From an uncultured delta proteobacterium (lineage in GTDB: Bacteria; Myxococcota; Kuafuiibacteriia; Kuafuiibacteriales; Kuafuiibacteriaceae), in assembly GCA_963803435.1 (NCBI GenBank), contig CAWDML010000003.1:1028664-1092663 (forward strand): a DNA stretch of 64,000 nt, given 5' to 3'. A program made the translations under genes and the position numbers. Positions 10,307-62,993 of the stretch are shown here, in pieces (position 1 is the stretch's first letter; every line of letters begins with the position of its first letter). The notes beneath the pieces were generated by a model. The model was not told the DNA's origin and searched no databases. It worked only from the letters and a program-made list of their open reading frames with translations.

Positions 10307-12726
10307 GGCTCGCGATCTCGAGCTGCCTCTCGTTGGCGGTGCTCGGCGGGTGCCGGCTGAATCCGGAGTGCTTCGGCACCAGCGAGTGTCCGGACGGGAC
10401 GTTCTGCTTCGAGCAGGAGTGCGTGCCGGCCTCGCCGGACGGCGGGACGTACACCTGGTGGGGCGACGTCGAGCCGATCGTGCGGGACCGCTGCCAGACC
10501 TGTCACGACAACCCGACGGCGAACGGGGCGCCGATCTCGCTGGTGACCTACGCCGACGTGACGGCGCAGGCGAGCACCGGCGTCCCAGTGCACCGGCAGA
10601 TGTACGAGCGAGTGAAGTCGACGAGCACGCCCATGCCGCCGCCGCCCAACCCCGGCCTGTCGTCCTCCGAGATCGACATCTTCAAGACCTGGACGCGCGA
10701 GGGCGCGCCCGAGGGCGATCCACCGTTCACCTGGTATCGGGACGTGCAGCCGATCGTGGCGGGCAACTGCCTCGGGTGCCACTCGGATCCGCCGCAGAAC
10801 CAGGCGCCCATCCCGCTGGTGTCGTGGGAGAACACGCAGGTCACCGGGTCGACCAACGAGCCGGTGCACGTGATCATGGCCCGCCGGGTCGACGCGCAGA
10901 TGAGCTTCATGCCGCCGACCGGACGGCTCCCGATCGGGCAGATCAACGTGATCCGGGCGTGGTCGCGGATCGGCGCGCCGCGGGGCCGGACCACCGAGCT
11001 GCCGGACGGCGGGCTGCCGGACGTCGGGATGCCCCAGACGCCGAGCCCGCTCGAGGGCGTGGGGCAGCTGGATCAGATCTCGACCGGCTACGTGTTCCTC
11101 GACGGCCCGGACTGGCGCGCGCCCACCCGCGTGCTCGTGTTCGCGGACGTCACCGGCGACACGATCTATCAGCTGACGCCGCCCAGCACGGTGGTCCCGC
11201 TTCGAACGCCGAGCGGTCGCGCGGAGGGCCTGCGCTCGGACCCGGACGATCAGCTGGTGGCCGCTGAGCGCGAGAGCCGCTCGATCACGAGGACCGACGA
11301 CCAGGGCACTGTCACGACGGTGACGGACCGCTACAACGGCAACCGATTCAACTCCCCGAACGACATCGCCGTACGGCTGAGCGACGGCACCATCTACTTC
11401 ACTGATCCGCCGCTCGGCCTCGACGGCCGGCCGCGCGAGATCAACTTCAACGGGCTGTTCCGGATCTCGCCGGCGGGCACCGTCACCGCCGAGTGGGAGG
11501 GCCCTGAAGGCTCCGAGCCGCACGGCCTCGATCTCTCTCCCGACGAGCGCACGCTCTATCTGTCGGACTCGCGGGACTCGGTGGTGCGGGCCTTCACGGT
11601 CAACCCGGACGGCACGCTCGCGAACGAGCGGATCTTCGTCTACACGGAGGCGTCGCCGGCAGGGATCGCACCGGACGAGAACGGCAACATCTTCGTGGCG
11701 ACCGCCGCGGGCGTGCAGGTGTTCGCCGACAACGGTTGGGTGTGGGGCACGATCCCGATCCCGGAGCAGCCGACCAACCTGGCGTTCGGCGGCGACGATC
11801 GGCGCACGCTCTACGTCACCACCGCGTCGACGCTCTACGCGATCTCGGTCCAGATCCCGGGGACGGACTGGAACCGCGCGATGCCGGACGCCGGCGCCAA
11901 CCCGCTGGAGGGCGTGGGCGCGGCGGAGGCCTTCGGTCCGATGACGTACCAGTTCCTGGAGGGGCCCGACTGGGACGCGGCCAATCAAAGGCTGGTGTTC
12001 TCCGACATCAACGGGGACACCATCTACGAGTTCAGGGCGCCCGATCAGTTCAACGCGATCCGGAACCCCAGCAACATGGCGAACGGGCTGTTCGTGGAGC
12101 CGAGCGGCTCGATCCTGATGTGCGAGCACGGCGGGCGCCGCGTCGAGCGGCTGGGCACCGACATGGCGGTCTCGGTCGTCACGGACAACTACAACGGGAT
12201 GATGTTCAACTCGCCCAACGACATCACCGAGCGCAGCGACGGGACGATCTACTTCTCGGATCCGGACTACGGGCTCGCCGGCCGGCCGATGGAGCTCAAC
12301 TTCCAGGGCGTCTTCCGTCTGACGCCCGGAGGCGTGTTGACCGTCGAGTGGCAGGGCTCGCTGACCGAGCGCCCGAACGGGCTGGTGTTCTCGCCGGACG
12401 AGCAGATCCTCTACGTCACCGACACCGAGAATCGCCGCGTGTATCGCTTCGACGTGGGGACGGATGGGGCGCTGACCGGGATGGGGCTGTTCGTCGACGC
12501 GATGGGCGATACGCCCGACGGGCTCGCCATCGATCGCGACGGCAACGTCTATCTGGCCTCCAGCCTCGGGATCGAGGTCTACCGCCCCGACGGGACGCAC
12601 TGGGGGAACATCCCGGTGGCCGAGGCGCCGTCCAACGTGGTGTTCGGTGGCGCGGAGCGACGGACGCTCTACATCACGACGCCGCACCGGCTGTATCGCG
12701 TCGACGTGCCGATCCCGGCGCCCTGA
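10303..12726 (+). CDS. paralogous lipoprotein with 2x CXXCH modules and 2x SMP-30/gluconolactonase/LRE-like propellers
   Basis: ATGA start/stop overlap with the preceding paralog. MRLAISSCLSLAVLGGC lipobox. Motifs WGDVEPIVRDRCQTCH and YRDVQPIVAGNCLGCH. Propeller motifs FNSPNDIAV..DGTIYFTDP and FNSPNDITE..DGTIYFSDP. Confidence 0.8.
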   Translation: MRLAISSCLSLAVLGGCRLNPECFGTSECPDGTFCFEQECVPASPDGGTYTWWGDVEPIVRDRCQTCHDNPTANGAPISLVTYADVTAQASTGVPVHRQMYERVKSTSTPMPPPPNPGLSSSEIDIFKTWTREGAPEGDPPFTWYRDVQPIVAGNCLGCHSDPPQNQAPIPLVSWENTQVTGSTNEPVHVIMARRVDAQMSFMPPTGRLPIGQINVIRAWSRIGAPRGRTTELPDGGLPDVGMPQTPSPLEGVGQLDQISTGYVFLDGPDWRAPTRVLVFADVTGDTIYQLTPPSTVVPLRTPSGRAEGLRSDPDDQLVAAERESRSITRTDDQGTVTTVTDRYNGNRFNSPNDIAVRLSDGTIYFTDPPLGLDGRPREINFNGLFRISPAGTVTAEWEGPEGSEPHGLDLSPDERTLYLSDSRDSVVRAFTVNPDGTLANERIFVYTEASPAGIAPDENGNIFVATAAGVQVFADNGWVWGTIPIPEQPTNLAFGGDDRRTLYVTTASTLYAISVQIPGTDWNRAMPDAGANPLEGVGAAEAFGPMTYQFLEGPDWDAANQRLVFSDINGDTIYEFRAPDQFNAIRNPSNMANGLFVEPSGSILMCEHGGRRVERLGTDMAVSVVTDNYNGMMFNSPNDITERSDGTIYFSDPDYGLAGRPMELNFQGVFRLTPGGVLTVEWQGSLTERPNGLVFSPDEQILYVTDTENRRVYRFDVGTDGALTGMGLFVDAMGDTPDGLAIDRDGNVYLASSLGIEVYRPDGTHWGNIPVAEAPSNVVFGGAERRTLYITTPHRLYRVDVPIPAP

Positions 12727-12730
12727 GCGA

Positions 12731-14089
12731 TCACTTCAGGAGCGACTTCACGTCGATCGCGTCCCAGAGCGCGGCCGGGAAGCTGTTCCGCGTGACGCTG
12801 CGGCGGTGCGTGAGGGAGCGCGTCGCGTCGATGCCGAGCTTCGCGACCTTGCCGTCCGCGCCGGGACAGGAGGGATCGAGCGGCGTGCCCTGGGCACCGG
12901 CGAGGATCCGGAGATCGCGGTCGGCCTGAACGTTGAGCGCCATCGCCGAGAGGACCTGGCGGAAGTCGTGGGCGTCGACATCGTCGTCCACCACGATCAC
13001 CTGCTTCGCGTAGATGTCGCCGGACAGGATGGCGTCGATGATCCGCTCGGGCTCGTCGTCGTCTTGCTTGGCGAGCGCGACGATCGCGGTCAGGGGCGCA
13101 GCCAGCACCACGCGCGTGACGTTCGGTGAGGCGCGGCGGGCGTCCTCCAGCGTCCGGTGCTCGATCCCGAGCATCGGCAGGACCAGGTGCTCCATCTGTC
13201 CGCTCACGACGTCCTGGAAGACGGCGTCGTCCCGGTGCGCGAGCAGGCTGACGGTGAGCACGGGCGACTCGGTCTTGCCGGTGCCGTAGCCGGTGAACTC
13301 GCCGAAGGGCCCCTCCTCGATCCGCTCCTCCGGGTCGACCGTGCCCTCCAGCACGAACTCAGCGAACGCCGGCACGATCAGATCGGGCTGCGAGCGGGTG
13401 GCGGTCACCGGGAGCGCGTGTCCCAGCAGGCCTCCGATGACGTCGTACTCCTCGATGTCGGGTGAGCCGGAGTAGAGCGCGCCGAGGGCCCAGGCGGGGT
13501 GCCAGCCGATGAAGGCGGCGACGGGCATGGGTACCCCGAGCGCCCGGTACTCTTCGAAGATGCGATCGAGGTGCTTCTTCTTCTCGATGAAGATCCCGGT
13601 CCGGTTCCGTCCCGCGATCATCAGGCGGTGGAAGCTGAGGTTGATCTTCTTCGTGCCCGGATCCCGCGCCGCCACGATCGCTGCCGTGAGATACGGCGCG
13701 CCGGCGTCGTGCTCGTGATAGACGAGCTGGGGAAGGATCGAGAGGTCGACCTCGCCGCCCGTGAACACGCGGTCGTAGGCGGGGGCCTCGCCGCTCTCCT
13801 CGGGCCGGATCGGGTGCGCGCAGCCCTCGCTCCAGCGGGCCGAGAGCCCCTTGAGCGGGACGCCCATCGCCAGCGCCAGGCGGCCCTGTGAGCCCGCCAC
13901 GGAGCTCACCATGGGGAAGGCGGTGCCCGTGACCCGTTCGAAGCGGACGATCGGGGTGCGCTGGCGATCCTCCAGCTTGGCCACGATGACGGCGGTCTCG
14001 TGGCGCGGGGAGACCTCGCGTTCGATCACCAGGAGGTCGCGCGGGCGCGCTGTCTTCACTTCGTCGAGGAACGTGCGCAGGTCGCTCAC
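12731..14089 (-). CDS. UbiD-family (prFMN-dependent) decarboxylase
   Basis: A GTG start overlapping the ligase stop (GTGA) gives 452 aa. N-terminus SDLRTFLDEVKTARPRDLLVIEREVSPRHE with UbiD-like sequence throughout (FIGWHPAWALGAL, GPFGEFTGYGTGK). The 182-codon N-terminal extension in the track ORF overlaps the ligase gene and looks non-coding. Confidence 0.85.
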   Translation of the reverse strand: MSDLRTFLDEVKTARPRDLLVIEREVSPRHETAVIVAKLEDRQRTPIVRFERVTGTAFPMVSSVAGSQGRLALAMGVPLKGLSARWSEGCAHPIRPEESGEAPAYDRVFTGGEVDLSILPQLVYHEHDAGAPYLTAAIVAARDPGTKKINLSFHRLMIAGRNRTGIFIEKKKHLDRIFEEYRALGVPMPVAAFIGWHPAWALGALYSGSPDIEEYDVIGGLLGHALPVTATRSQPDLIVPAFAEFVLEGTVDPEERIEEGPFGEFTGYGTGKTESPVLTVSLLAHRDDAVFQDVVSGQMEHLVLPMLGIEHRTLEDARRASPNVTRVVLAAPLTAIVALAKQDDDEPERIIDAILSGDIYAKQVIVVDDDVDAHDFRQVLSAMALNVQADRDLRILAGAQGTPLDPSCPGADGKVAKLGIDATRSLTHRRSVTRNSFPAALWDAIDVKSLLK

Positions 14090-15582
14090 AGATCCATCTT
14101 CTCTTGGACGATCTTGGTGACGGCGGGGCGATCGATCTTCCCCGAGTTGGTCTTGGGGAGGGCGTCGACCACGTGCAGGACCCGCGGGACCCGGACGAAG
14201 GACATCGACTTGAGGCAGTGATGCCGCAGCGTGGCGAGGTCGAGCGTCCGGCCGTCGCGGAGCGCGACGCATGCGACGATGCGCTCGCCGAGATCGCGAT
14301 CGGGCACGCCCAGGACGCACGACTCCTTCACGTCGGGGTGGGCGTCGAGGACGTCCTCGATCTCCTTGGGGAAGATGCGCTCGCCCGACGACTTGATCAT
14401 CTGGCTGCTGCGGCCCACCAGAAAGAGGAAGCCCTCCGGATCGAAGCGCCCCAGATCGCCGGTGCGCAGCCGGCCGCGCTCGTCGATCCGGCCCGAGCTT
14501 CGCTCGTCGCCCGAGACGTAGCCTCTCATGATGTGCGGGCCGCTGGCGACGACCTCCCCGATCTGGCCGTTCGCGACGGGCTCGCCGTCGTCGCCCACGA
14601 CGTCGACCCGCGTGCCCGGGAGCGCGCGCCCGCACGAGCCTCGCTTCGCGAACACGTGATCCGGCCCGATGTACGTGATCCTCGGCGAGGCCTCGGTCTG
14701 CCCGTACGCGAGGTGGACCCCGACGTTGGGCAGGGCCGCCCTCAGCTGATCGAGCTCATCGACCGAGAGGGCGCCGCCGGTGATCAGGACGTACTTCAGG
14801 TCCGGGAGGCTGGCGTTGGCGAACGGCTTCATCAGCTGCTTGAAGTGGTAGGGGACGCCGGAGAAGCCGCTGACGCCGTGGTGTGCGATCTCGTCCACCA
14901 CCTGCTTGGGGAAGTGGAAGCCCGCCGAGAAGCAGAGCCGGCCGCCGACCAGCGCGTGCGTCAGGAGCTGCATCCGGCCGTGGATGAACGAGAGCGGCAC
15001 CAGCACCAGGATGCTGTCCTCGTGCGTCAGCTTCACCCACTCGTTGGCCGCGCTGACGTTCGAGATCAGGTTCGTGTGCGAGAGCATCACCCCCTTGGGA
15101 CGGCCGGTGCTCCCCGAGGTGTAGATGATGAGCGCCGGATCGTCCGGTGACACGGCCGGACGCTCGAGGCGCGGGGGGCTCGGGAGATCCGACAGCTCGC
15201 TCAGCACGCGAGCGGGCGCGTGGTGGAGGCCGTCCGGGCCCATCTTCTCGAGCAGCTTCGGCTGCGCCAGCAGCGCGCTCGGCCGGGACTCCTCGAGGAT
15301 GCCGTCGATCGTGTCGCGCGCCGCCAGGTGCGGGACGTCGACCACCTGGGCACCGAGACGCTGCACGCCCCAGAAGGCGAGCAGGGCCGGCGGCTCGTTC
15401 TCCCAGAGGATGGCCACGCGATCGCCCGGCTTCACGCCCTGGGATGCAAGGTGGCCTGCGATCCGGCCGGCCTCTTCCTCGAGCTCCGCCCAGGTGAAGC
15501 GGACCTCCTTGGGAAAGACCGCCGCCTCCCGGTCGGGCAGCTTCTCGGCGGCGGACGCCAGCAGGTCGAGGAGGAGCATCAC
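14086..15582 (-). CDS. AMP-dependent synthetase/ligase (adenylate-forming enzyme)
   Basis: 498 aa. AMP-binding core IIYTSGSTGRPKGVMLSH, YGQTE, TGDLGRFDPEGFLFLVGRSSQMIKSSGERI, and C-terminal KTNSGKIDR. Confidence 0.9.
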   Translation of the reverse strand: MMLLLDLLASAAEKLPDREAAVFPKEVRFTWAELEEEAGRIAGHLASQGVKPGDRVAILWENEPPALLAFWGVQRLGAQVVDVPHLAARDTIDGILEESRPSALLAQPKLLEKMGPDGLHHAPARVLSELSDLPSPPRLERPAVSPDDPALIIYTSGSTGRPKGVMLSHTNLISNVSAANEWVKLTHEDSILVLVPLSFIHGRMQLLTHALVGGRLCFSAGFHFPKQVVDEIAHHGVSGFSGVPYHFKQLMKPFANASLPDLKYVLITGGALSVDELDQLRAALPNVGVHLAYGQTEASPRITYIGPDHVFAKRGSCGRALPGTRVDVVGDDGEPVANGQIGEVVASGPHIMRGYVSGDERSSGRIDERGRLRTGDLGRFDPEGFLFLVGRSSQMIKSSGERIFPKEIEDVLDAHPDVKESCVLGVPDRDLGERIVACVALRDGRTLDLATLRHHCLKSMSFVRVPRVLHVVDALPKTNSGKIDRPAVTKIVQEKMDL

Positions 15583-15818
15583 TTCGTGCGTTGCTTCTCG
15601 ATGAACTGGGCCAGGCGCGCCACGGTCCCGAACTGGTCGGGCGTGATGTCGTCGAGCTCCACCTGGAAGCCGTAGTTGTCTTCCATCCAGACCACGAGCT
15701 CCATCACGGCGGTCGAGTCGACGATCTCCGTGAGGTCTGAGTGCTGCGTCAGGCCCTTCGCGGAGCTGGCGAGCTGGGTGCCGATGTATTGGATCAGAGC
15801 CTCCTCGATCGAGGACAT
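15579..15818 (-). CDS. acyl/peptidyl carrier protein
   Basis: 79 aa, acidic. Candidate phosphopantetheine site in LTEIVDSTAVMELV. The stop overlaps the ligase GTG start (GTGA). Confidence 0.8.
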   Translation of the reverse strand: MSSIEEALIQYIGTQLASSAKGLTQHSDLTEIVDSTAVMELVVWMEDNYGFQVELDDITPDQFGTVARLAQFIEKQRTK

Positions 15819-15830
15819 GCCGTGGTCATA

Positions 15831-17222
15831 CTAGAAGCGATACGCGACCGCTAGAGTGCTCTTGAGCTCGAGCAGACCGAGCGCAGCGTTCTCGAGATCT
15901 TGCTCGCCAGGCGGAACGGCCCGGGTGGGACGCTCCGAAAACGCCACACGGTCGAACCCGAGGCGGCTGTCCAGCGAGAGCCCGAGGCCGGCGAAGAGCC
16001 ACACGCGGACGGCGAAGCGGCCGCCGGCGGTGAAGCCGCCCCGGCTCCTCCCCGTGTCGGTCGGACGCTCCCGGTAGAGCGGGATGTAGCCGCCGTGCCC
16101 GCCCGCCTCGATCTCGAGCACGCGACCGATCGGGATTCGGAGCGACAGGGCCGCGACGACCGCGAGGGCGGTGGCTTCGGGGATGACGTCGAGCGGGTGT
16201 TCCTCGACCGAGGCGATCGAGAGGTGGGCGCCGAGTCCGGGGATCAGCACCGGCGCGTCGGCGGCGCCGAACGCGAACGGATAGATGATCAGCGCGAACA
16301 TGTCGAAGATGGTGCCGCGCGGCCGGCTCGAGCCCTCACCGGTGTCGATGGCGTAGCGGACCGGTTGCAGCCCGAGGTCGACAGCGACGCCGAGGCCGGC
16401 GTCGGGGATCACGAACTCGCCGCCGAGCTCGAACAGCGAGGTGGGCCCGAGGCGATAGGACAGCGACGAGTCGCCAATCGCCTCGGCGGTGACCTGCACC
16501 GAGCGGATCCAGCCGGAGCCGGCGCCCAGGCGGACGCGGCCGAGGGCGGTGCGCGACACCGGCGCGTCGGGCTCGGGGTCGGGCTCGGGCTCCGGCTCGG
16601 GGGCGACGATCCGCTCGAGCGGCGGCGGGGGATCGGAGGCGGCCAGCTCGACCGGCTCCGGCGGTGGTGGATCCGGCGGGGGATCATCCGCGATCTCGGG
16701 CTCGGGCTCGGGCTCGGGCTCGCGGTCGGCGATGGGGATCGGTGGCGCGTCGCTGGTCTCGGGGGCCTCGGGTGAGATGCGCGCGAGCGCCTCGGCTGCG
16801 ATCGCCTCGGCCGCCGCCCCGGCTCCACCGCGCCCGTAGCGCCGGGCGAATCGCAGCGACACCACGCCCGTGTCGGCGTCGATCAGCCGGGCCTTGACCG
16901 TGAACGGCGGATCGCCGGTCACCTTGGCGAGGGAGACCAACAGGAGCCAGCGCGCCCCGGCGGTCCGGGCTGCCTTTGCAAGATAGCCTGCATTGCGCGC
17001 CTTCTTGCCGCGAAGACGCAGCCGCCGCTTCCGGATCGCGAAGTCACCCTGCGGTATCAGGGCGACCTTGCCGGCCAGCGTGCCCTCCAGCGTGGACTGG
17101 ACCTTGTCGCGGCCCAGCCGCTCCGGGCCGATGGTCTCGACCACCCAGCGGCCCGCGTCCGGAACGGCGGCCATCAAGACCACCACGGCGCTCCACACGA
17201 AACCGGCCATGAAGTCGTGCAT
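15831..17222 (-). CDS. hypothetical envelope protein with Glu/Pro-rich linker and beta-barrel-like C-terminal half
   Basis: Start chosen at MHDFMAGFVWSAVVVLMAAVP (Met17 of the track ORF). EPEPEPEPE/PPPDPPPP low-complexity linker. The C-terminal part has alternating hydrophobic residues and ends ...LAVAYRF, an OM-barrel-like terminal Phe. Confidence 0.5.
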   Translation of the reverse strand: MHDFMAGFVWSAVVVLMAAVPDAGRWVVETIGPERLGRDKVQSTLEGTLAGKVALIPQGDFAIRKRRLRLRGKKARNAGYLAKAARTAGARWLLLVSLAKVTGDPPFTVKARLIDADTGVVSLRFARRYGRGGAGAAAEAIAAEALARISPEAPETSDAPPIPIADREPEPEPEPEIADDPPPDPPPPEPVELAASDPPPPLERIVAPEPEPEPDPEPDAPVSRTALGRVRLGAGSGWIRSVQVTAEAIGDSSLSYRLGPTSLFELGGEFVIPDAGLGVAVDLGLQPVRYAIDTGEGSSRPRGTIFDMFALIIYPFAFGAADAPVLIPGLGAHLSIASVEEHPLDVIPEATALAVVAALSLRIPIGRVLEIEAGGHGGYIPLYRERPTDTGRSRGGFTAGGRFAVRVWLFAGLGLSLDSRLGFDRVAFSERPTRAVPPGEQDLENAALGLLELKSTLAVAYRF

Positions 17223-17278
17223 TGTACGACGGAACCGCACGTCGCATCCCGCCCGGACTCTCACTACCATCCGCGGTC

Positions 17279-18625
17279 GTGCTGCGGTTCATCTGGCCGG
17301 CCGCGCTCCTGTTGGGCTGCGTGCCCGAGGGAATCCAGTATCCGAACCCCACCGACGGGGGAACGTCGCCCGACGCCGAGACGATGGTCGACGGGGACGC
17401 AGGTCCACCCGGCGACAGCGGTGGGGTCCCGGACAGCGGTCCGGCCGGCCAGCTCGTGATCCGCGCGGGCGGCGTGCCGGTCGATCCCGGCGGCACCTTC
17501 GACTTCGGCCCCCTCGGCGTGGGCGGTACGCGCACCGTGGTGTTCACGATCGACAACGGTACCGCGGCGGCGGTGACGCTGACCGGCTCGCCGCCGGTCG
17601 CGATCTCTGGGGCTGGGGCCGCCGCCTTCACGGCGACGCCGCCGTCGGCCACCTCCGTCGCCCCGGGCGCGAGCGCCGACTTCTCCATCGCCGCCGCACC
17701 GACCGCCACCGGTCCGCTCTCCGCGGCGGTCAGCGTCGCCTACGACGGCGGCGCCTACGACTTCAGTGTCTCGGTGACGGGACGCCCGCCGGGCGTCTGG
17801 GTGGGCGTCGGCAACAACGGCCGGCGCGCGCTGTCCCTCGACGGCGCCGCCTGGTCGAACGAGCAGACGTTCGGCGGCAGCGACGACTCGAACCTGTTCC
17901 GGACCGTCGGCTTCGGCAACGGCGTGTTCGTCGCCGCTGGCGGCGGGCAGAACGGCCTCCTGTATTGGAGCGAGAACGGCGTCGACTGGACCGACGCCAG
18001 CGACACGCTGGGATGGTTCGGCGGGATCGCGTTCGGCAACGGAATGTTCCTGGCCGTGGGGTCGAATGGGCGCTATCTCACCAGCACCAACGGCAAGAGC
18101 TGGGGCGGCGGGGATCGCGACTTCGCGCAGCACTTCCGCGCCGTCGCGTTCGGCAACGGGGAGTTCGTGCTGGTGGGCGACGAGGGTCGGCGCACCAGCA
18201 CCACGAACGGCGCCGACTTCACACCGACCGTGCTGGGCGGTGATCGACTCACGGCGGTCGTCTACACCGGCGATCGATTCGTGGCGGTGGGCCTCAACGG
18301 CCGCCGCGTGGTCTCGATGGACGGCGAGAGCTGGATGTTCGATCAGATCGCCACCGACGGGCTTGGGTTCTTCGACGTGGCCTATGGCAACGGTCGCGTC
18401 ATCGCCGTCGGCGGCATTGGCGTGGTGGTATCGGAGGACGGCGGCGAGACGTGGACGCAGGATCGCGGCGCTCCGCTCATGAACGCGTTGACCTACGGCA
18501 ACGGACAGTTCGTCGGCACGGGCGACTTCGACGGGGTTGTCTTCACCTCGGGCGACGGCGTCAGCTGGACCCGCCACGACAACGCGGGCCCCGCCGGGTT
18601 CACCAAGATCGCCTACGGTGAGTGA
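17279..18625 (+). CDS. lipoprotein with N-terminal Ig/ASH-like domain and 7 repeats of a (F/Y)GNGxFVAVG beta-propeller motif
   Basis: GTG at 17279 gives MLRFIWPAALLLGC (lipobox). Repeats seen: FGNGVFVAAGG, FGNGMFLAVGSNG, FGNGEFVLVGDEG, YTGDRFVAVGLNG, YGNGRVIAVGGIG, YGNGQFVGTGDFDG, each followed by S.DG..W. Confidence 0.6.
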   Translation: MLRFIWPAALLLGCVPEGIQYPNPTDGGTSPDAETMVDGDAGPPGDSGGVPDSGPAGQLVIRAGGVPVDPGGTFDFGPLGVGGTRTVVFTIDNGTAAAVTLTGSPPVAISGAGAAAFTATPPSATSVAPGASADFSIAAAPTATGPLSAAVSVAYDGGAYDFSVSVTGRPPGVWVGVGNNGRRALSLDGAAWSNEQTFGGSDDSNLFRTVGFGNGVFVAAGGGQNGLLYWSENGVDWTDASDTLGWFGGIAFGNGMFLAVGSNGRYLTSTNGKSWGGGDRDFAQHFRAVAFGNGEFVLVGDEGRRTSTTNGADFTPTVLGGDRLTAVVYTGDRFVAVGLNGRRVVSMDGESWMFDQIATDGLGFFDVAYGNGRVIAVGGIGVVVSEDGGETWTQDRGAPLMNALTYGNGQFVGTGDFDGVVFTSGDGVSWTRHDNAGPAGFTKIAYGE

Positions 18626-20145
18626 GCCGCCAGCGGGGGGATGCCGTCCGCCGACAGCAGCTGCCGCTTCAAGCGCTTGGCCACGAAGATGCCGAGCGGG
18701 ATCAGGAGCACGGTGCCGGCGGCCGCGGTCGACAGCTCGACGCGGATCGGGATGAAGCGCCGGAGCAGGTAGGGGAGGCCGGCGCCGAGGAATGCCAGCA
18801 CGAAGCCGAGCAGGGTCCACTTGGCGTCGCCCTTGGCCGCCGGGATCCCGTGGCGGCGCAGCTGCAGGACGACCACGATCTGCCCGCACATCGAGCCCAT
18901 GCCCATGCCCACCAGGAAGCCGCCCAGTCCGAACAGGTGGAACAGCCCGAGCGCCGAGCACGCCGATACGGTCAGCTTGATGAGGTTGGCGAAGGCCTGG
19001 CTCTGGGCGTCACCGACCGCCAGCAGCGCCTTCGAGTGGGCCTCCTGAAGGTGGAGGAACCAGGTCCCGATCATCGCGATCTGCACCATCCAGCCGGCGT
19101 CGAGATAGCGATTGTCGTAGAAGACCCAGTAGAAGGCCGGGGCGAAGAACACCATCCCGAGGATCGCGAACAGCCCCGCCGAGAGGACCAGCTTCTGGCC
19201 GTGGAGGAAGTACGCGTTGAGCGTCGCCGGATCCTTGCGGGCGCCTTCCGAGAGCGCGGGCAGGAGCACCGAGCCCACCACCATGCCGGCGACCTCGATC
19301 GGGATGAACGCGAGCGTGGCGGCCAGGTAATAGACGCCGACGTCGCCGAGGTTGAGGAGCTTGCCGAGGAGCAGGTAGTCGAGGCGGTTCGCGAGATACG
19401 TGACCAGCGTGGAGAGGAAGATCCACTTGCCGAAGCCGAAGATCGCCCGCGCCGCCTCCGGCTCGAGCTGGAAGCGGTTGCGGATGCCGGGGAGGATCGT
19501 GTGCGTGAGCATCGTGCGCACGCCCGCCGCGGTGACCGAGCCGACCACGAGCGCCCAGACGCTCCGGTAGACATACGCGAACGAGATCATGACCACCATC
19601 GCGCACGCCTGGCTGGTCATCTCGACGGCGACCACCCGCCCGAGCCGGATCTTCCGTCGCATGCTGGCGATGTTGGTGGAGTCGAACCCGTTGAAGAGGG
19701 CCGAGATGCAGGCCACCGGGGCCAACGTGAGCAGGTTGGGCTGCTCGTAGAAGAGGGAGAGCGGGTACGCGAAGAGGAGGCCGAGGAGCAAGAGCGACAC
19801 ACCCCGCATGACCTGGATCGTCCAGGCCGTGTTGAGGAAGACCGGCTCGTCGCCCCGCTTGTGCTGGATGATGTTCGGCAGGATCCCGACGTCGGAGATC
19901 ATGCTCAGACCCATGACGAGGAAGTTCACCATCGTCATCAGGCCGAACGCCTCCGGGAACAGGAGGCGCGACAGGACCATGTTGCTGATCAACCGCAGCA
20001 TCTTGCTGCCGCCCTGGCCGAAGAGGCTGATCAGGGTGCCCCGGATGACCCGCTGCTTGATGTTCTCCTTGGGGGCTTCGACGACGACCGGGGTGGGAGG
20101 ATCCAACACCGCAGGCTGATCGAAGGGGTCGGGGGCGCTGCTCAT
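18613..20145 (-). CDS. MOP-superfamily oligo/polysaccharide flippase (Wzx-like)
   Basis: 510 aa, polytopic. N-terminus RVIRGTLISLFGQGGSKMLRLISNMVLSRLLFPEAFGLM is typical of Polysacc_synt flippases. Confidence 0.8.
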   Translation of the reverse strand: MSSAPDPFDQPAVLDPPTPVVVEAPKENIKQRVIRGTLISLFGQGGSKMLRLISNMVLSRLLFPEAFGLMTMVNFLVMGLSMISDVGILPNIIQHKRGDEPVFLNTAWTIQVMRGVSLLLLGLLFAYPLSLFYEQPNLLTLAPVACISALFNGFDSTNIASMRRKIRLGRVVAVEMTSQACAMVVMISFAYVYRSVWALVVGSVTAAGVRTMLTHTILPGIRNRFQLEPEAARAIFGFGKWIFLSTLVTYLANRLDYLLLGKLLNLGDVGVYYLAATLAFIPIEVAGMVVGSVLLPALSEGARKDPATLNAYFLHGQKLVLSAGLFAILGMVFFAPAFYWVFYDNRYLDAGWMVQIAMIGTWFLHLQEAHSKALLAVGDAQSQAFANLIKLTVSACSALGLFHLFGLGGFLVGMGMGSMCGQIVVVLQLRRHGIPAAKGDAKWTLLGFVLAFLGAGLPYLLRRFIPIRVELSTAAAGTVLLIPLGIFVAKRLKRQLLSADGIPPLAAHSP

Positions 20146-26875: not shown

Positions 26876-28329
26876 ATGCTCTTCAACTCGGTCCCGTTCC
26901 TGATCTTCTTCCCGATCGTCGTCGCGGCCTACTTCATCGTCCCGTTTCGCGCGCGATGGCTCCTGCTCCTCGCGGCCTCCTACTACTTCTACATGCAGTG
27001 GGAGCCGAGCTACGCGATCCTGATCGTGATCTCGACCAGCCTCGACTACCTGGCGACGATGATGATGAGGAACAAGGCGTCGAAGGCCGAGCGTCGCCCC
27101 TGGCTGTTCGTCAGCCTGGCCGGCAACCTGGGGATGCTCTTCTTCTTCAAGTACTACAACTGGTTCAACCAGAACCTGATCGACGTGACCGGGCACGATC
27201 TCCTGCCCTTCTCGAACCTCCTCCTGCCAGTGGGGATCAGCTTCTACACGTTCCAGTCTCTCAGCTACACCATCGACGTCTACCGCGGGCGCCTCGAGGC
27301 GGAGACGCACCCCGGCGTGTTCGCGCTCTACGTCGCGCTACTTCCCGCAGCTGGTGGCCGGCCCGATCGAGCGTGCCAAGAGTCTCCTCCCGCAGCTCAA
27401 GAGCGAGCACCGCTTCGACTACAAGAACGCAACCGACGGCCTCAAGCTGATGGCTGTGGGGCATGTTCAAGAAGGTCTGTGTGGCGGACCGCCTGGCGCC
27501 CTTCACCAAGGCGGTCTTTCACGGCGATCCGCACGCGTTCCCCGGATCGGTCTTGACGCTGTCGGCCGCGTTCTTCTGCCTGCAGGTCTACTGCGACTTC
27601 TCGGGCTACTCCGACATCGCCTGCGGGTCGGCGCAGGTGATGGGCGTCCGGTTGATGGAGAACTTCCGGCGTCCGTTCTTCTCACGAAGCATCGAGGAGC
27701 TGTGGAGGCGCTGGCACATGTCGCTGGTCGGCTGGATCAACGACTACGTCTACCAGCCGATCGCCTACGCGGCGCGGCGGGCCTCCAGCGCGCGCAAGCA
27801 GCTCAACGTGGTCTTCGTCTTCCTGGTCACCGGGCTGTGGCACGGCGCCAGCTGGAAGTTCGTGGCCTGGGGCGGTCTCAACGGCCTCATGGTGGTCGCG
27901 CACGTGGTCTCGCTCCCGGTTCGGCGCCGGACGATCGAGGTGCTCCGCCTCGATCGGATCCCTCGCCTCCACGCGGCCTTCTCCATCGCGTTCACGTTCA
28001 TGCTCTTCTCGTTGGGCTCGGTCTTCTTCGCGGCGAAGGACTTCACCTCGGCCGCCGCCATCTTCCGTGGTCTACCCTTCGGCTGGGGCGACCTCGCCGG
28101 CCTGAAGTCGGCGCTCCTCGGCGGCGGCGCCTCGAACCTGCTGCTGCTGGCCGGCGGTATCGCCATCCTGATGGCGGGTGACATCCTCCAGGAGAAGACG
28201 GGCGGCGTGCGCCTGTGGCTCTCCTCTCGTCCCGGCTGGGTCCGCTGGTCGCTCTACTACGGGCTCGTCCTCTGGATCGTGCTGTTCGGTGTGTTCGAGC
28301 GCGAGGAGTTCGTGTACTTCCAGTTCTAG
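26876..28329 (+). pseudogene. MBOAT-family O-acyltransferase (AlgI/DltB-like) interrupted by two +1 frameshifts
   Basis: Three frames splice into one canonical MBOAT. Segment 1 ends ...PVGISFYTFQSLSYTIDVYRG...FALYVA (frame of 26876). Segment 2 is YFPQLVAGPIERAKSLLPQL...LKLMA (frame of 27354). Segment 3 is WGMFKKVCVADRLA...WRRWHMSLVGWINDYVY...WHGASW (frame of 27463). Extra bases at about 27338 and 27456. Confidence 0.8.
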
Positions 28330-61802: not shown

Positions 61803-62993
61803 TTATTTCTCAAGCCGCTCCACGATCGCTCTTGCAGTTTCCCGCGCACCCTCGGCGTTCAGGTGGGGGTCGTGGTTGAAGTAGTGGTCGGCCCGGGTGA
61901 GGCGGGCGTGCAGATCGAGGGTGTCGACGCCCGCCGCCTCGAGGCGCTCGATGAACTCGCGCGTCGGCGCGGCGTAGGTCTCGGGCGCGGCCTCGCCCTT
62001 CATCGGGATCACGACCACGGTGAAGGTCGCCCCGCGTGACTCGGCGACCGCCTTCATGCGCAGGGTGGCGGCCAGCGCCAGCTCGATGCCCTCCTCACGA
62101 TAGTTCTCGAGCGGTCCGATCACACGGTCCCGATCGGGCTCCACCAGCCGCCCGAGCAGCACGCGTACCCCGACGAGAGACAGCACCTTGCGGAGGGTGG
62201 TGTCGTCCTCCTTGGCCTCGACGTGCTCGCGGTAGTCCTCTTCGGTGTACGCCGTCCCGTCCGGTCGTGCCACGGGGACCAGGTACCCCTCGTAGACCTG
62301 GTAGTTGCCGAAGCGGGCGTCGTCGCGCAGGTCGTTGCCGTTGAAGATGTAGATGACGTCGTGCGCAGGGAGGTCTCGGGTCGCCTCGAGCTTTGCGACC
62401 GTCTCTCCGGGGCCGAACCCGAGCACGCCCAGGTCGTAAGCATCGATGCGACCTTTGGTGAGCGACTCAATCGACGCGTCGATGGTGTCGTGCTGCGGCA
62501 GACCGTAGCCGAACGCGACCGAGTCTCCAATCAGGAGGACCCGCCGGTCCGGGTTCGGCGCGGGTTCGGCGTCACGGTCGCCCCGGCTGTTGATCTCGAT
62601 GTCGGCCGTGACCACCCCGTCCTGAAAGACGCCGGTCCAGTAGGGCGTCAGGTTGAAGCCCCACGGGGTCTCGACGACGCTTCCCCGGAGCGTGATGACC
62701 GGATCGATCCGGGCCTCGTAGGGCGTCACGACCAGCAGCCCGACCTCGACCAGGAGCAGCGAGAAGTACGCGGCGCCGAAGAGCAAGATGAGTTGACGCG
62801 TCATCCGCGCCAGCGTGCCGTCCTGCGGAAGAACGCCGACGGCGATCACCCCGGCGCCGAGGAACAGCATGAGCTGCTGGAGGGCACCGAAACCCTTCTC
62901 CCCCCACCCGGCGAGCTCGGCGATGCTCGTGATCGCGAGCAGCAAGACGCCGACCGCGAGCGCCGTGTTCTGGTAGGTGGATCGGCGTACCAA
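61803..62993 (-). CDS. membrane-anchored SGNH/GDSL-family hydrolase or acyltransferase (AlgX/DltD-like context)
   Basis: 396 aa. Three N-terminal hydrophobic helices, then VLLIGDSVAFGYGL (block I GDS), IYIFNGNDL (block III), and a late DPHLN (block V DxxH). Confidence 0.7.
   Translation of the reverse strand: MVRRSTYQNTALAVGVLLLAITSIAELAGWGEKGFGALQQLMLFLGAGVIAVGVLPQDGTLARMTRQLILLFGAAYFSLLLVEVGLLVVTPYEARIDPVITLRGSVVETPWGFNLTPYWTGVFQDGVVTADIEINSRGDRDAEPAPNPDRRVLLIGDSVAFGYGLPQHDTIDASIESLTKGRIDAYDLGVLGFGPGETVAKLEATRDLPAHDVIYIFNGNDLRDDARFGNYQVYEGYLVPVARPDGTAYTEEDYREHVEAKEDDTTLRKVLSLVGVRVLLGRLVEPDRDRVIGPLENYREEGIELALAATLRMKAVAESRGATFTVVVIPMKGEAAPETYAAPTREFIERLEAAGVDTLDLHARLTRADHYFNHDPHLNAEGARETARAIVERLEK

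Follow-up and report, generated by a model that had tools for sequence, protein, structure and literature searches.

A carrier protein, ligase and UbiD gene triad in an uncultured member of the Myxococcota, probably one part of a split GH3-UbiD cassette

Enzymes of the UbiD family, which depend on prenylated flavin mononucleotide (prFMN), have been much studied for their reversible decarboxylation and carboxylation reactions, and to our knowledge only a few of them have known substrates and all of those characterized, except the coenzyme A (CoA)-dependent phthalate enzymes, take free acids. Here we analyze a locus of an uncultured delta proteobacterium (phylum Myxococcota; assembly GCA_963803435.1) in which a UbiD gene is chained to genes for a carrier protein and an adenylate-forming ligase, at positions 12731-15818 of a 64,000-nucleotide stretch of contig CAWDML010000003.1; this whole stretch is called the window below, and its contig C3. 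The original prediction for this locus, which was made without database searches, held that UbiD enzymes normally act on free acids, and known exceptions to that generalization are the phthaloyl-CoA and isophthaloyl-CoA decarboxylases (PMC6644310, PMC7976604), the former of which provides a precedent for a thioester-dependent UbiD enzyme (PMC6644310). Several other UbiD enzymes (of the pairs Tri9/Tri10, TtnC/TtnD and SmdJ/SmdK) form an alkene by decarboxylating an alpha,beta-unsaturated acid (10.1101/2021.05.12.443849; PMC11350588).

Our main conclusion is that the three genes form a functional unit: they are conserved jointly, are translationally coupled, have moved together and are co-inherited. 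The triad very probably belongs to a conserved orphan cassette, other members of which lie on a second contig (C2) of the same genome. Our preferred reading, which we hold tentatively, goes further and takes the triad to be the acyl-activation and decarboxylation sub-module of this uncharacterized "GH3-UbiD" cassette, split between the window and contig C2 and working by a mechanism in which the acyl group would stay tethered to the carrier. Judging from profile scores, each protein of the cassette falls in a known superfamily and none reaches the cut-off of a characterized equivalog; the combination appears to be unpublished, since a literature search turned up no pathway or paper on the cassette.

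The triad and its conservation

Read along the minus strand, the triad begins with the carrier protein gene (15579-15818; 79 aa; Pfam PF00550; phosphopantetheine site Ser35 in the motif DSTA), continues with the adenylate-forming ligase gene, a member of the ANL superfamily (14086-15582; 498 aa; AMP-binding and AMP-binding_C domains), and ends with the gene for a UbiD-family prFMN-dependent decarboxylase or carboxylase (12731-14089; 452 aa; UbiD_N, UbiD and UbiD_C domains). All three open reading frames (ORFs) are intact, and both junctions read GTGA, the stop of one gene overlapping the GTG start of the next by 4 nt, so that the minus-strand, GTGA-chained arrangement that had been predicted is confirmed by the ORFs and by the junction sequences. 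At the junction of carrier and ligase the GTG start is immediately followed by ATG; the ligase may therefore start one codon later, which would leave the coupling unaffected. Six-frame family searches of the whole genome placed no match to ketosynthase (KS; PF00109) or condensation (PF00668) domains within the window, which bears out the original prediction for these two types, and acyltransferase (AT) domains, which it had also called absent, were not searched separately.

The arrangement is far from a product of chance, as orthologues of 47-65% identity recur in at least four phyla. A protein search with the UbiD sequence yielded over 120 separate 90%-clusters of at least 53% identity, annotated as Myxococcota, "Deltaproteobacteria", Planctomycetes or Sorangium. 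The usual order of the cassette is [SDR]-hydrolase-GH3-enolase-ACP-ligase-UbiD-flavoprotein-[UbiX] (SDR, short-chain dehydrogenase/reductase; ACP, acyl carrier protein), the genes are contiguous in most loci, and on all long contigs examined but one the UbiD orthologue lies at most 10 kb from the same partners. Cassette bearers include Sorangium sp. So ce1335, two Planctomycetota, three Acidobacteriota and one Methylomirabilia metagenome-assembled genomes (MAGs), and several further records. In a maximum-likelihood tree of 87 UbiD sequences (made by a quick search only), the carrier/ligase-linked UbiDs group together in a single clade (14 rows; SH-aLRT 99) that spans Myxococcota, Planctomycetota, Acidobacteriota and Methylomirabilota. 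The UbiDs of hmfF/hmfG-type loci of Burkholderiaceae, where hmfG is the UbiX gene, make up a separate clade, to whose members the window UbiD is 36-38% identical.

Co-occurrence tells a similar story. In a set of 31 related genomes, a UbiD orthologue turned up in four, and those of the ligase, the flavoprotein and the enolase turned up in exactly these four (in one of them the flavoprotein is on a different contig); the four represent three genera and hence few events, and this perfect profile agrees with the synteny across phyla. The layout of the window, namely flippase, two unannotated genes, ACP, ligase and UbiD, is also that of a metagenomic relative with an 81% identical UbiD, which argues that the split of the cassette is older than both lineages and that the triad moved as one block. 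The original prediction is thus upheld on several counts: the triad is conserved, across at least four phyla and in the same four of the 31 related genomes, its UbiD keeps the catalytic motif and its ligase is not a generic fatty-acyl-CoA synthetase (see below for these residues and scores).

Two of the cassettes are unusually alike. Those of So ce1335 (L008) and of the Methylomirabilia MAG (L019) share SDRs that are 80% identical, PhyH proteins that are 73% identical and hydrolases that are 70% identical; in the tree their UbiDs are sisters joined by short branches, and both loci have an extra PhyH-type dioxygenase. This likeness suggests either a recent transfer across phyla or a mis-binned contig.

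The probable remainder of the cassette on contig C2

The assembly (about 10 Mb in 16 contigs, 68% G+C) is a bin with an estimated contamination of 8.5%, and most of the relatives used for comparison are MAGs. The triad UbiD is the sole UbiD of the genome. The genome also has a single UbiX, a flavin prenyltransferase of the family responsible for prFMN synthesis, which is missing from the window as had been predicted; it is found at C2:119288-119872, scores 184 bits against TIGR00421 (cut-off 108.9) and is free of internal stops. Together with UbiX, the region C2:113-122 kb carries genes for a flavoprotein, an SDR, an alpha/beta-hydrolase, a GH3 amido-synthetase, an enolase-superfamily protein of the MR_MLE type and a 4HBT thioesterase. 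The flavoprotein gene is on the minus strand, the SDR, hydrolase, GH3 and MR_MLE genes diverge from it, UbiX is convergent and the thioesterase gene is nearby. Both halves of the cassette are situated in mid-contig, and C2 and C3 match in composition (G+C 68.5% vs 68.3%; tetranucleotide r = 0.998), which together argue that the separation is real and does not reflect a break in the assembly. While the three genes of the window were rightly taken as a functional unit, they appear to be only half of a larger cassette, the remainder of which is on C2. The co-inherited set is not accompanied by genes for polyketide or nonribosomal peptide synthesis.

Two ORFs in the C2 region, of 738 aa for the flavoprotein and 690 aa for the GH3 protein, were rejected as drawn, since both run into the SDR and hydrolase genes through N-terminal extensions that are spurious. 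Beside UbiX there is also an ORF for an iron-type alcohol dehydrogenase (L017:10433-11266; C2:119932-120762), which at 277 aa includes only the start of the C-terminal domain and may be truncated or frameshifted.

The partner enzymes give some idea of the chemistry. The flavoprotein, of a type that forms or reduces C=C bonds, aligns end to end with SdhA/FrdA and retains the equivalents of Escherichia coli FrdA R287, H355 and R390. It lacks His44, the site of covalent FAD attachment, as well as H232, T244 and E245 of the capping domain. With the roles that we take these FrdA residues to have, the pattern suggests a substrate with one carboxylate beside a CH2-CH2 or CH=CH unit, rather than a free C4-dicarboxylate. 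The enolase-type protein (L017:8676-9755) and its orthologues keep the KxK motif and three metal ligands, and an invariant Arg (R269) takes the place of the second catalytic Lys, K268, of the dipeptide epimerase YkfB; a classical two-base mechanism of racemization is thus improbable for it. The GH3 protein finds its best NCBIfam match in OlsH, a lyso-ornithine-lipid synthetase described not long ago (PMC12493201), at 134 bits against a cut-off of 620, and the cassette hydrolase has no OlsI-type match. Weak matches of the enolase-type and hydrolase genes are to muconate cycloisomerase and 3-oxoadipate enol-lactonase, respectively.

Two further assignments were considered and rejected. A menaquinone pathway with MenC/MenE/MenH-like enzymes is contradicted by scores far below cut-off for all MenE, MenC and MenH matches, and MenB, MenD and MenF were not seen in the loci examined. 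The futalosine-pathway enzyme MqnL does not fit either, with TIGR03701 giving 167 bits against a cut-off of 496.

Protein signatures, candidate chemistry and alternatives

The window UbiD is recognized by all three Pfam models of the family (PF20695, 46 bits; PF01977, 177 bits; PF20696, 72 bits) and passes TIGR00148 with 271.5 bits against a cut-off of 244.85. Catalysis in UbiD enzymes relies on an R-Xn-E-X4-(E/D) network, which in Aspergillus niger Fdc1 consists of R173, E277 and E282 (PMC5818171). The window protein has R155, E259 and E264, spaced by 104 and 5 residues as in Fdc1, and the three are invariant in 14 orthologues and in 87/87 sequences compared. N150, H173 and E214, which do not vary within the cassette clade and prevail outside it, are presumably the counterparts of Fdc1 N168, H191 and E233, the metal and phosphate ligands of prFMN; this mapping depends on the numbers of all three being 18-19 lower than in Fdc1 and on an alignment with HmfF, not on a direct alignment with Fdc1.

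The closest solved structure is that of HmfF (6h6v; E 5e-55 over 405 residues), and many orthologues of the window UbiD are annotated at JGI as decarboxylases of 2,5-furandicarboxylic acid (FDCA). His296 of HmfF is kept as H301 in the window protein and is common to all clades compared; this His (H296/297 of HmfF) has been called key for furan-type substrates (PMC7976604). The column of HmfF Arg304 divides the family, with Arg in 17/17 hmfF-like rows and Ile, Leu or Met in both ligase-linked clades (Ile309 in the window protein). We assume that Arg304 contacts the distal carboxylate of FDCA; if this role holds, the hydrophobic column implies that the substrate of the clade presents no free second carboxylate at UbiD. 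A similar comparison at HmfF Arg331 was dropped, as the position could not be mapped reliably and its column is Ser in hmfF-like rows. Fused UbiD forms, in the size range 792-2260 aa, were looked for and none was found, which is weak evidence.

The ligase is a clear member of its superfamily (PF00501, AMP-binding, 274 bits, E 1.7e-81; PF13193, AMP-binding_C, 66 bits). Its core motifs TSGSTGRPKG and YGQTE and the C-terminal catalytic Lys (SGK482) are present and are invariant in cassette orthologues, as are R203 and R301. Among the best 25 of its 108 NCBIfam matches it falls under the cut-off of every model, including the adenylation model of nonribosomal peptide synthetases (NRPSs), TIGR01733 (234 bits vs 317), and the second-best match, TIGR03098 (318 bits vs 592). 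At core motif A4, where amino-acid adenylation domains have an Asp to bind the amino group, the ligase has Ile200, "SFD" of LgrA aligning with "SFI". The best single-domain solved relative is an oxalate-CoA ligase (5ie0; 201 bits), followed by feruloyl- and fatty-acyl-CoA synthetases and a malonyl-CoA synthetase. LgrA itself tops the list of solved structures, but an NRPS-like assignment was rejected, because its score is the sum of two A domains at about 115-123 bits each. The closest paralogue in the genome is at most 33% identical, compared to 47-60% for cassette orthologues from other phyla, which argues that the ligase is dedicated to the cassette and is not a housekeeping fatty-acyl-CoA synthetase. 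The presumed role of the ligase is to charge the carrier protein with a non-amino carboxylic acid. Three cassette-holding relatives have a second ligase copy, 47-50% identical, elsewhere in the genome (G004:C59:73031-74470, G010:C2:2308508-2309992 and G013:C817:886-2325); the genome studied here has no second copy at that level.

The carrier protein passes PF00550 (PP-binding) with 26.7 bits against a cut-off of 20.8. The Asp-Ser phosphopantetheine motif that had been noted from the sequence (D34-S35) proves to be invariant across 11 cassette orthologues, and so is a Trp in helix III among the orthologues aligned. The NCBIfam matches are weak and all far under cut-off, to AmcB, AsbD, OlsHI-ACP (26.4 bits vs 130) and DltC (16.1 bits vs 68). 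A prediction of a carrier-UbiD complex from alignments, run without controls, gave a score of 0.00 and counts neither for nor against such a complex.

The preferred reading combines these signatures as follows. The ligase would adenylate a small acid that has no amino group (probably a dicarboxylate such as those of the succinate or fumarate type) and leave it on the carrier as a half-thioester; the flavoprotein would introduce alpha,beta-unsaturation beside the remaining free carboxylate; and UbiD would strip this carboxylate from the tethered acyl group, leaving a vinyl- or acryloyl-type acyl-ACP, for example by the route succinyl to fumaryl to acryloyl-ACP. Through ester or amide bonds, the hydrolase-fold and GH3 enzymes would next join this unit to an acceptor with an amine or hydroxyl group, giving a conjugate for the envelope or an exopolysaccharide (EPS). 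The tethered order alone would jointly explain the dicarboxylate-type ligase, the "half-succinate" site of the flavoprotein and the loss of the HmfF-type Arg. The parts of this proposal differ in strength. That UbiD acts on a tethered acyl group at all seems possible though rather doubtful, and much the same can be said of the strict order ligase, flavoprotein, UbiD, with all three acting on the half-thioester. The fullest version, in which the UbiD of this clade would be the first prFMN enzyme to use a carrier-tethered substrate, a dicarboxylic half-thioester being desaturated and decarboxylated on the carrier to give a vinyl- or acryloyl-type acyl-ACP as a reactive decoration of EPS or envelope lipids, is speculative, and the succinyl to fumaryl to acryloyl chemistry in particular is less likely again.

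The neighborhood of the triad bears on where the product might go. A gene for a Wzx/MOP-type polysaccharide flippase (18613-20145, minus strand; Polysacc_synt_3, E 2.2e-50) marks the edge of an EPS locus, and the triad is found at this edge both here and in the relative with the 81% identical UbiD. Two other cassette loci adjoin sugar-transferase or sugar-modifying genes, and further loci adjoin resistance-nodulation-division (RND) efflux pump or TonB genes instead. The location at the edge of EPS or glycan genes is a hint that the product reaches the envelope or an exopolysaccharide, and it lends plausibility to the envelope acylation step that had been suggested at the outset. Between flippase and triad, also on the minus strand, is a gene for a hypothetical envelope protein (15831-17270) with an N-terminal hydrophobic segment, a Pro/Glu-rich linker and a C-terminus ending in YRF. 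It stops 12 nt upstream of the carrier start, and the two genes are possibly co-transcribed. The gene is not considered part of the cassette; its product matched no Pfam or NCBIfam family, and no homologue was present in the other cassette loci compared. The 81% relative has an unannotated gene of 395 aa in the same place (a match of position only). A scan of 12400-18800 for sigma-70 promoter and terminator consensus sequences gave nothing exceeding the shuffled expectation. At the other end of the triad, a convergent gene for an 810-aa CXXCH/gluconolactonase-type lipoprotein ends at 12726, with 4 nt between its stop and that of UbiD (window 12724-12733), so that a terminator cannot fit between the two.

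Several observations weigh against the tethered mechanism or the integrity of the cassette that it calls for. The sequence by itself fits either order of ligase and UbiD, and the substrate is likewise a prediction from sequence. Adjacency of UbiD and ligase also fits a pathway in which a free acid is processed before it is activated, as with HmfF followed by HmfD, and anaerobic UbiD-type carboxylases of arenes are clustered with CoA ligases. One locus (L102) keeps UbiD, flavoprotein and UbiX, and carrier and ligase were not found within 10 kb of it. A separate, sister-level UbiD clade from Rokubacteria, Methylomirabilota and Alphaproteobacteria has UbiD immediately followed by a ligase, without a carrier. 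Flavoproteins with non-covalent FAD, of the Frd/NadB type, usually favor reduction or oxidase chemistry over dehydrogenation of the succinate type. Finally, the flavoprotein gene on C2 contains an in-frame TAG at C2:113475-113477 (L017:3976-3978, minus strand), 63 codons before the normal end. The context is CTAGG where CCAGG is expected, orthologues have Gln (CAG), and the frame beyond the TAG is open and highly conserved, including the motif ESRGSH; the TAG may be a very recent nonsense mutation that makes a pseudogene, a 5-methylcytosine deamination, or an artefact of base calling at a methylated site.

The loci of the carrier-less clade (L024-L049; e.g. L028:9962-12759 and L039:9497-12767) encode UbiDs about 40% and ligases about 30% identical to those of the window, and one of them has an amidase gene upstream.

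Two other orders of reaction fit most of the data, and we consider each of them rather unlikely. In one, UbiD would carboxylate a neutral aromatic, heteroaromatic or alkene precursor and the ligase would capture the thermodynamically unfavorable acid as an ACP thioester, thereby pulling the equilibrium, with the acyl-ACP then consumed by the other cassette enzymes. UbiD reactions are reversible, with carboxylation of 2-furoate by HmfF documented (PMC6644310), and the anaerobic UbiD-type carboxylases of benzene and naphthalene are clustered with CoA ligases (PMC6644310, PMC12016498); the loss of Arg from the Arg304 column in both ligase-linked clades would suit a substrate without a second carboxylate, and the 4-nt overlap of the UbiD and ligase genes is in keeping with such a capture. 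However, a co-inherited Sdh/Frd-like flavoprotein with carboxylate-binding residues would then have no role, a candidate pathway to a neutral precursor is not apparent in the cassette, and carboxylation of the HmfF type requires very high CO2 in vitro (PMC6644310). In the other order, UbiD would take one carboxyl group off a free dicarboxylic acid, heteroaromatic, aromatic or unsaturated, and the ligase would load the carboxylate that remains, following the logic by which HmfF converts FDCA to 2-furoate for the furoyl-CoA synthetase HmfD. HmfF being the closest relative that is both solved and characterized (E 5e-55), the many FDCA decarboxylase annotations at JGI, the conserved His (H301 for HmfF His296; see PMC7976604 on that residue) and the existence of a UbiD-ligase clade that has no carrier are all consistent with this order. 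The cassette clade nevertheless stands apart from hmfF/hmfG loci, the column of the presumed distal-carboxylate ligand, Arg304, is hydrophobic, and no other hmf-type catabolic genes were seen in the cassette loci examined.

A purely catabolic role, in which the carrier would replace CoA in the breakdown of an environmental aromatic or heteroaromatic acid and there would be no envelope product, is improbable. A patchy spread across phyla, as seen here in bacteria of soil and sediment, is what accessory catabolic islands typically show, and the weak muconate cycloisomerase and enol-lactonase matches and the TonB receptor or RND pump beside some loci would also suit such a role; yet dedicated carriers and GH3 amide synthetases are hallmarks of biosynthesis, several loci are set among glycan genes, and neither a ring-cleavage dioxygenase nor beta-oxidation genes were seen in the loci. 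Far less probable still is the other possibility raised by the original prediction, namely that ligase and carrier are a DltA/DltC-like pair that feeds acylation by an MBOAT protein (26876-28329) and an SGNH-type protein (61803-62993, minus strand) elsewhere in the window. Apart from the presence of a stand-alone carrier and ligase and of these two candidate partners, the evidence goes the other way and led us to abandon this reading: the carrier scores 16.1 bits against 68 for DltC, no DltA model occurs among the best 25 of the 108 ligase matches, the amino-group Asp is Ile200, and the would-be partners are 11-46 kb distant. The MBOAT is split into separate ORFs, with only the C-terminal half (profile positions 171-331) in one frame and no Pfam match for the first ORF, and the SGNH protein has an AlgX-type domain, as in alginate-style O-acetylation of polysaccharides, and is not of the DltD type. 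In other genomes the conserved neighbors of the triad genes are instead GH3, MLE, FAD and UbiX genes, and MBOAT or DltD was never among the Pfam-labelled genes of six annotated loci.

Relation to described systems

That a whole UbiD clade is passed on along with a carrier and ligase of its own, in soil and sediment bacteria of at least four phyla, is a pointer to an undescribed class of substrate and an undescribed pathway; this pathway may produce a novel acyl modification of exopolysaccharides or envelope lipids. From comparisons of sequences, what the window adds is that the cassette can apparently be split, with carrier, ligase and UbiD moving as a block, and that the carrier-linked UbiDs appear as one clade distinct from HmfF. 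There are further hints, at the level of residues, of a masked distal carboxylate and of an enolase-type enzyme that lacks the second catalytic Lys. The split also shows carrier, ligase and UbiD to be one travelling sub-module, and this compact unit of three genes (plus UbiX) lends itself to heterologous reconstitution.

The system that resembles the triad most closely is the HmfF/HmfG decarboxylase with the ligase HmfD, from Cupriavidus basilensis (the structure, 6h6v, is from Pelotomaculum thermopropionicum). Shared features are the R-Xn-E-X4-E motif, the His at position 296 (H301), the dependence on a UbiX-type partner and the functional succession of a decarboxylase and an adenylate-forming ligase. 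The window UbiD differs in belonging to another clade and in its hydrophobic residue in the Arg304 column, its ligase is predicted to load a dedicated carrier rather than CoA, and the neighboring genes are of the GH3, enolase and Sdh-like types rather than those of hmf catabolism. In substrate logic, the tethered mechanism is likened here to the phthaloyl-CoA and isophthaloyl-CoA decarboxylases, in which UbiD acts on a dicarboxylic acid that has been activated beforehand as a thioester at the other carboxylate (PMC6644310). Those enzymes differ in that the thioester is to CoA and is made by a CoA transferase, and in that the pathway is catabolic and free of carriers.

The cassette also resembles the ornithine-lipid pathway of Singulisphaera acidiphila, with OlsH (GH3) and OlsI (alpha/beta-hydrolase), in pairing a GH3 protein with an adjacent hydrolase and a small ACP (PMC12493201; NF052613, NF052616). 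UbiD, UbiX, the flavoprotein, the enolase-type enzyme and the ligase are all missing from that pathway, and the cassette proteins score only 134 vs 620 and 26.4 vs 130 bits against its models. A comparable pairing of ligase and decarboxylase at polysaccharide genes is offered by the exosortase-A-associated acyl-CoA ligase TIGR03098, which according to its TIGRFAMs description adjoins, in EPS loci, the pyridoxal phosphate (PLP)-dependent decarboxylase TIGR03099. With 318 bits, below the cut-off of 592, the window ligase does not belong to that family, and the decarboxylase there depends on PLP and not on prFMN. Lastly, the UbiX/UbiD pairs Tri9/Tri10 (of triacsin), TtnC/TtnD and SmdJ/SmdK show that such enzymes can be found within ACP-based biosynthetic clusters. 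In those cases the substrate, as shown or proposed, is a free acid that has been released at a late stage of a polyketide synthase (PKS) pathway, whereas the window is free of PKS genes and its UbiD falls in the HmfF-like part of the family.

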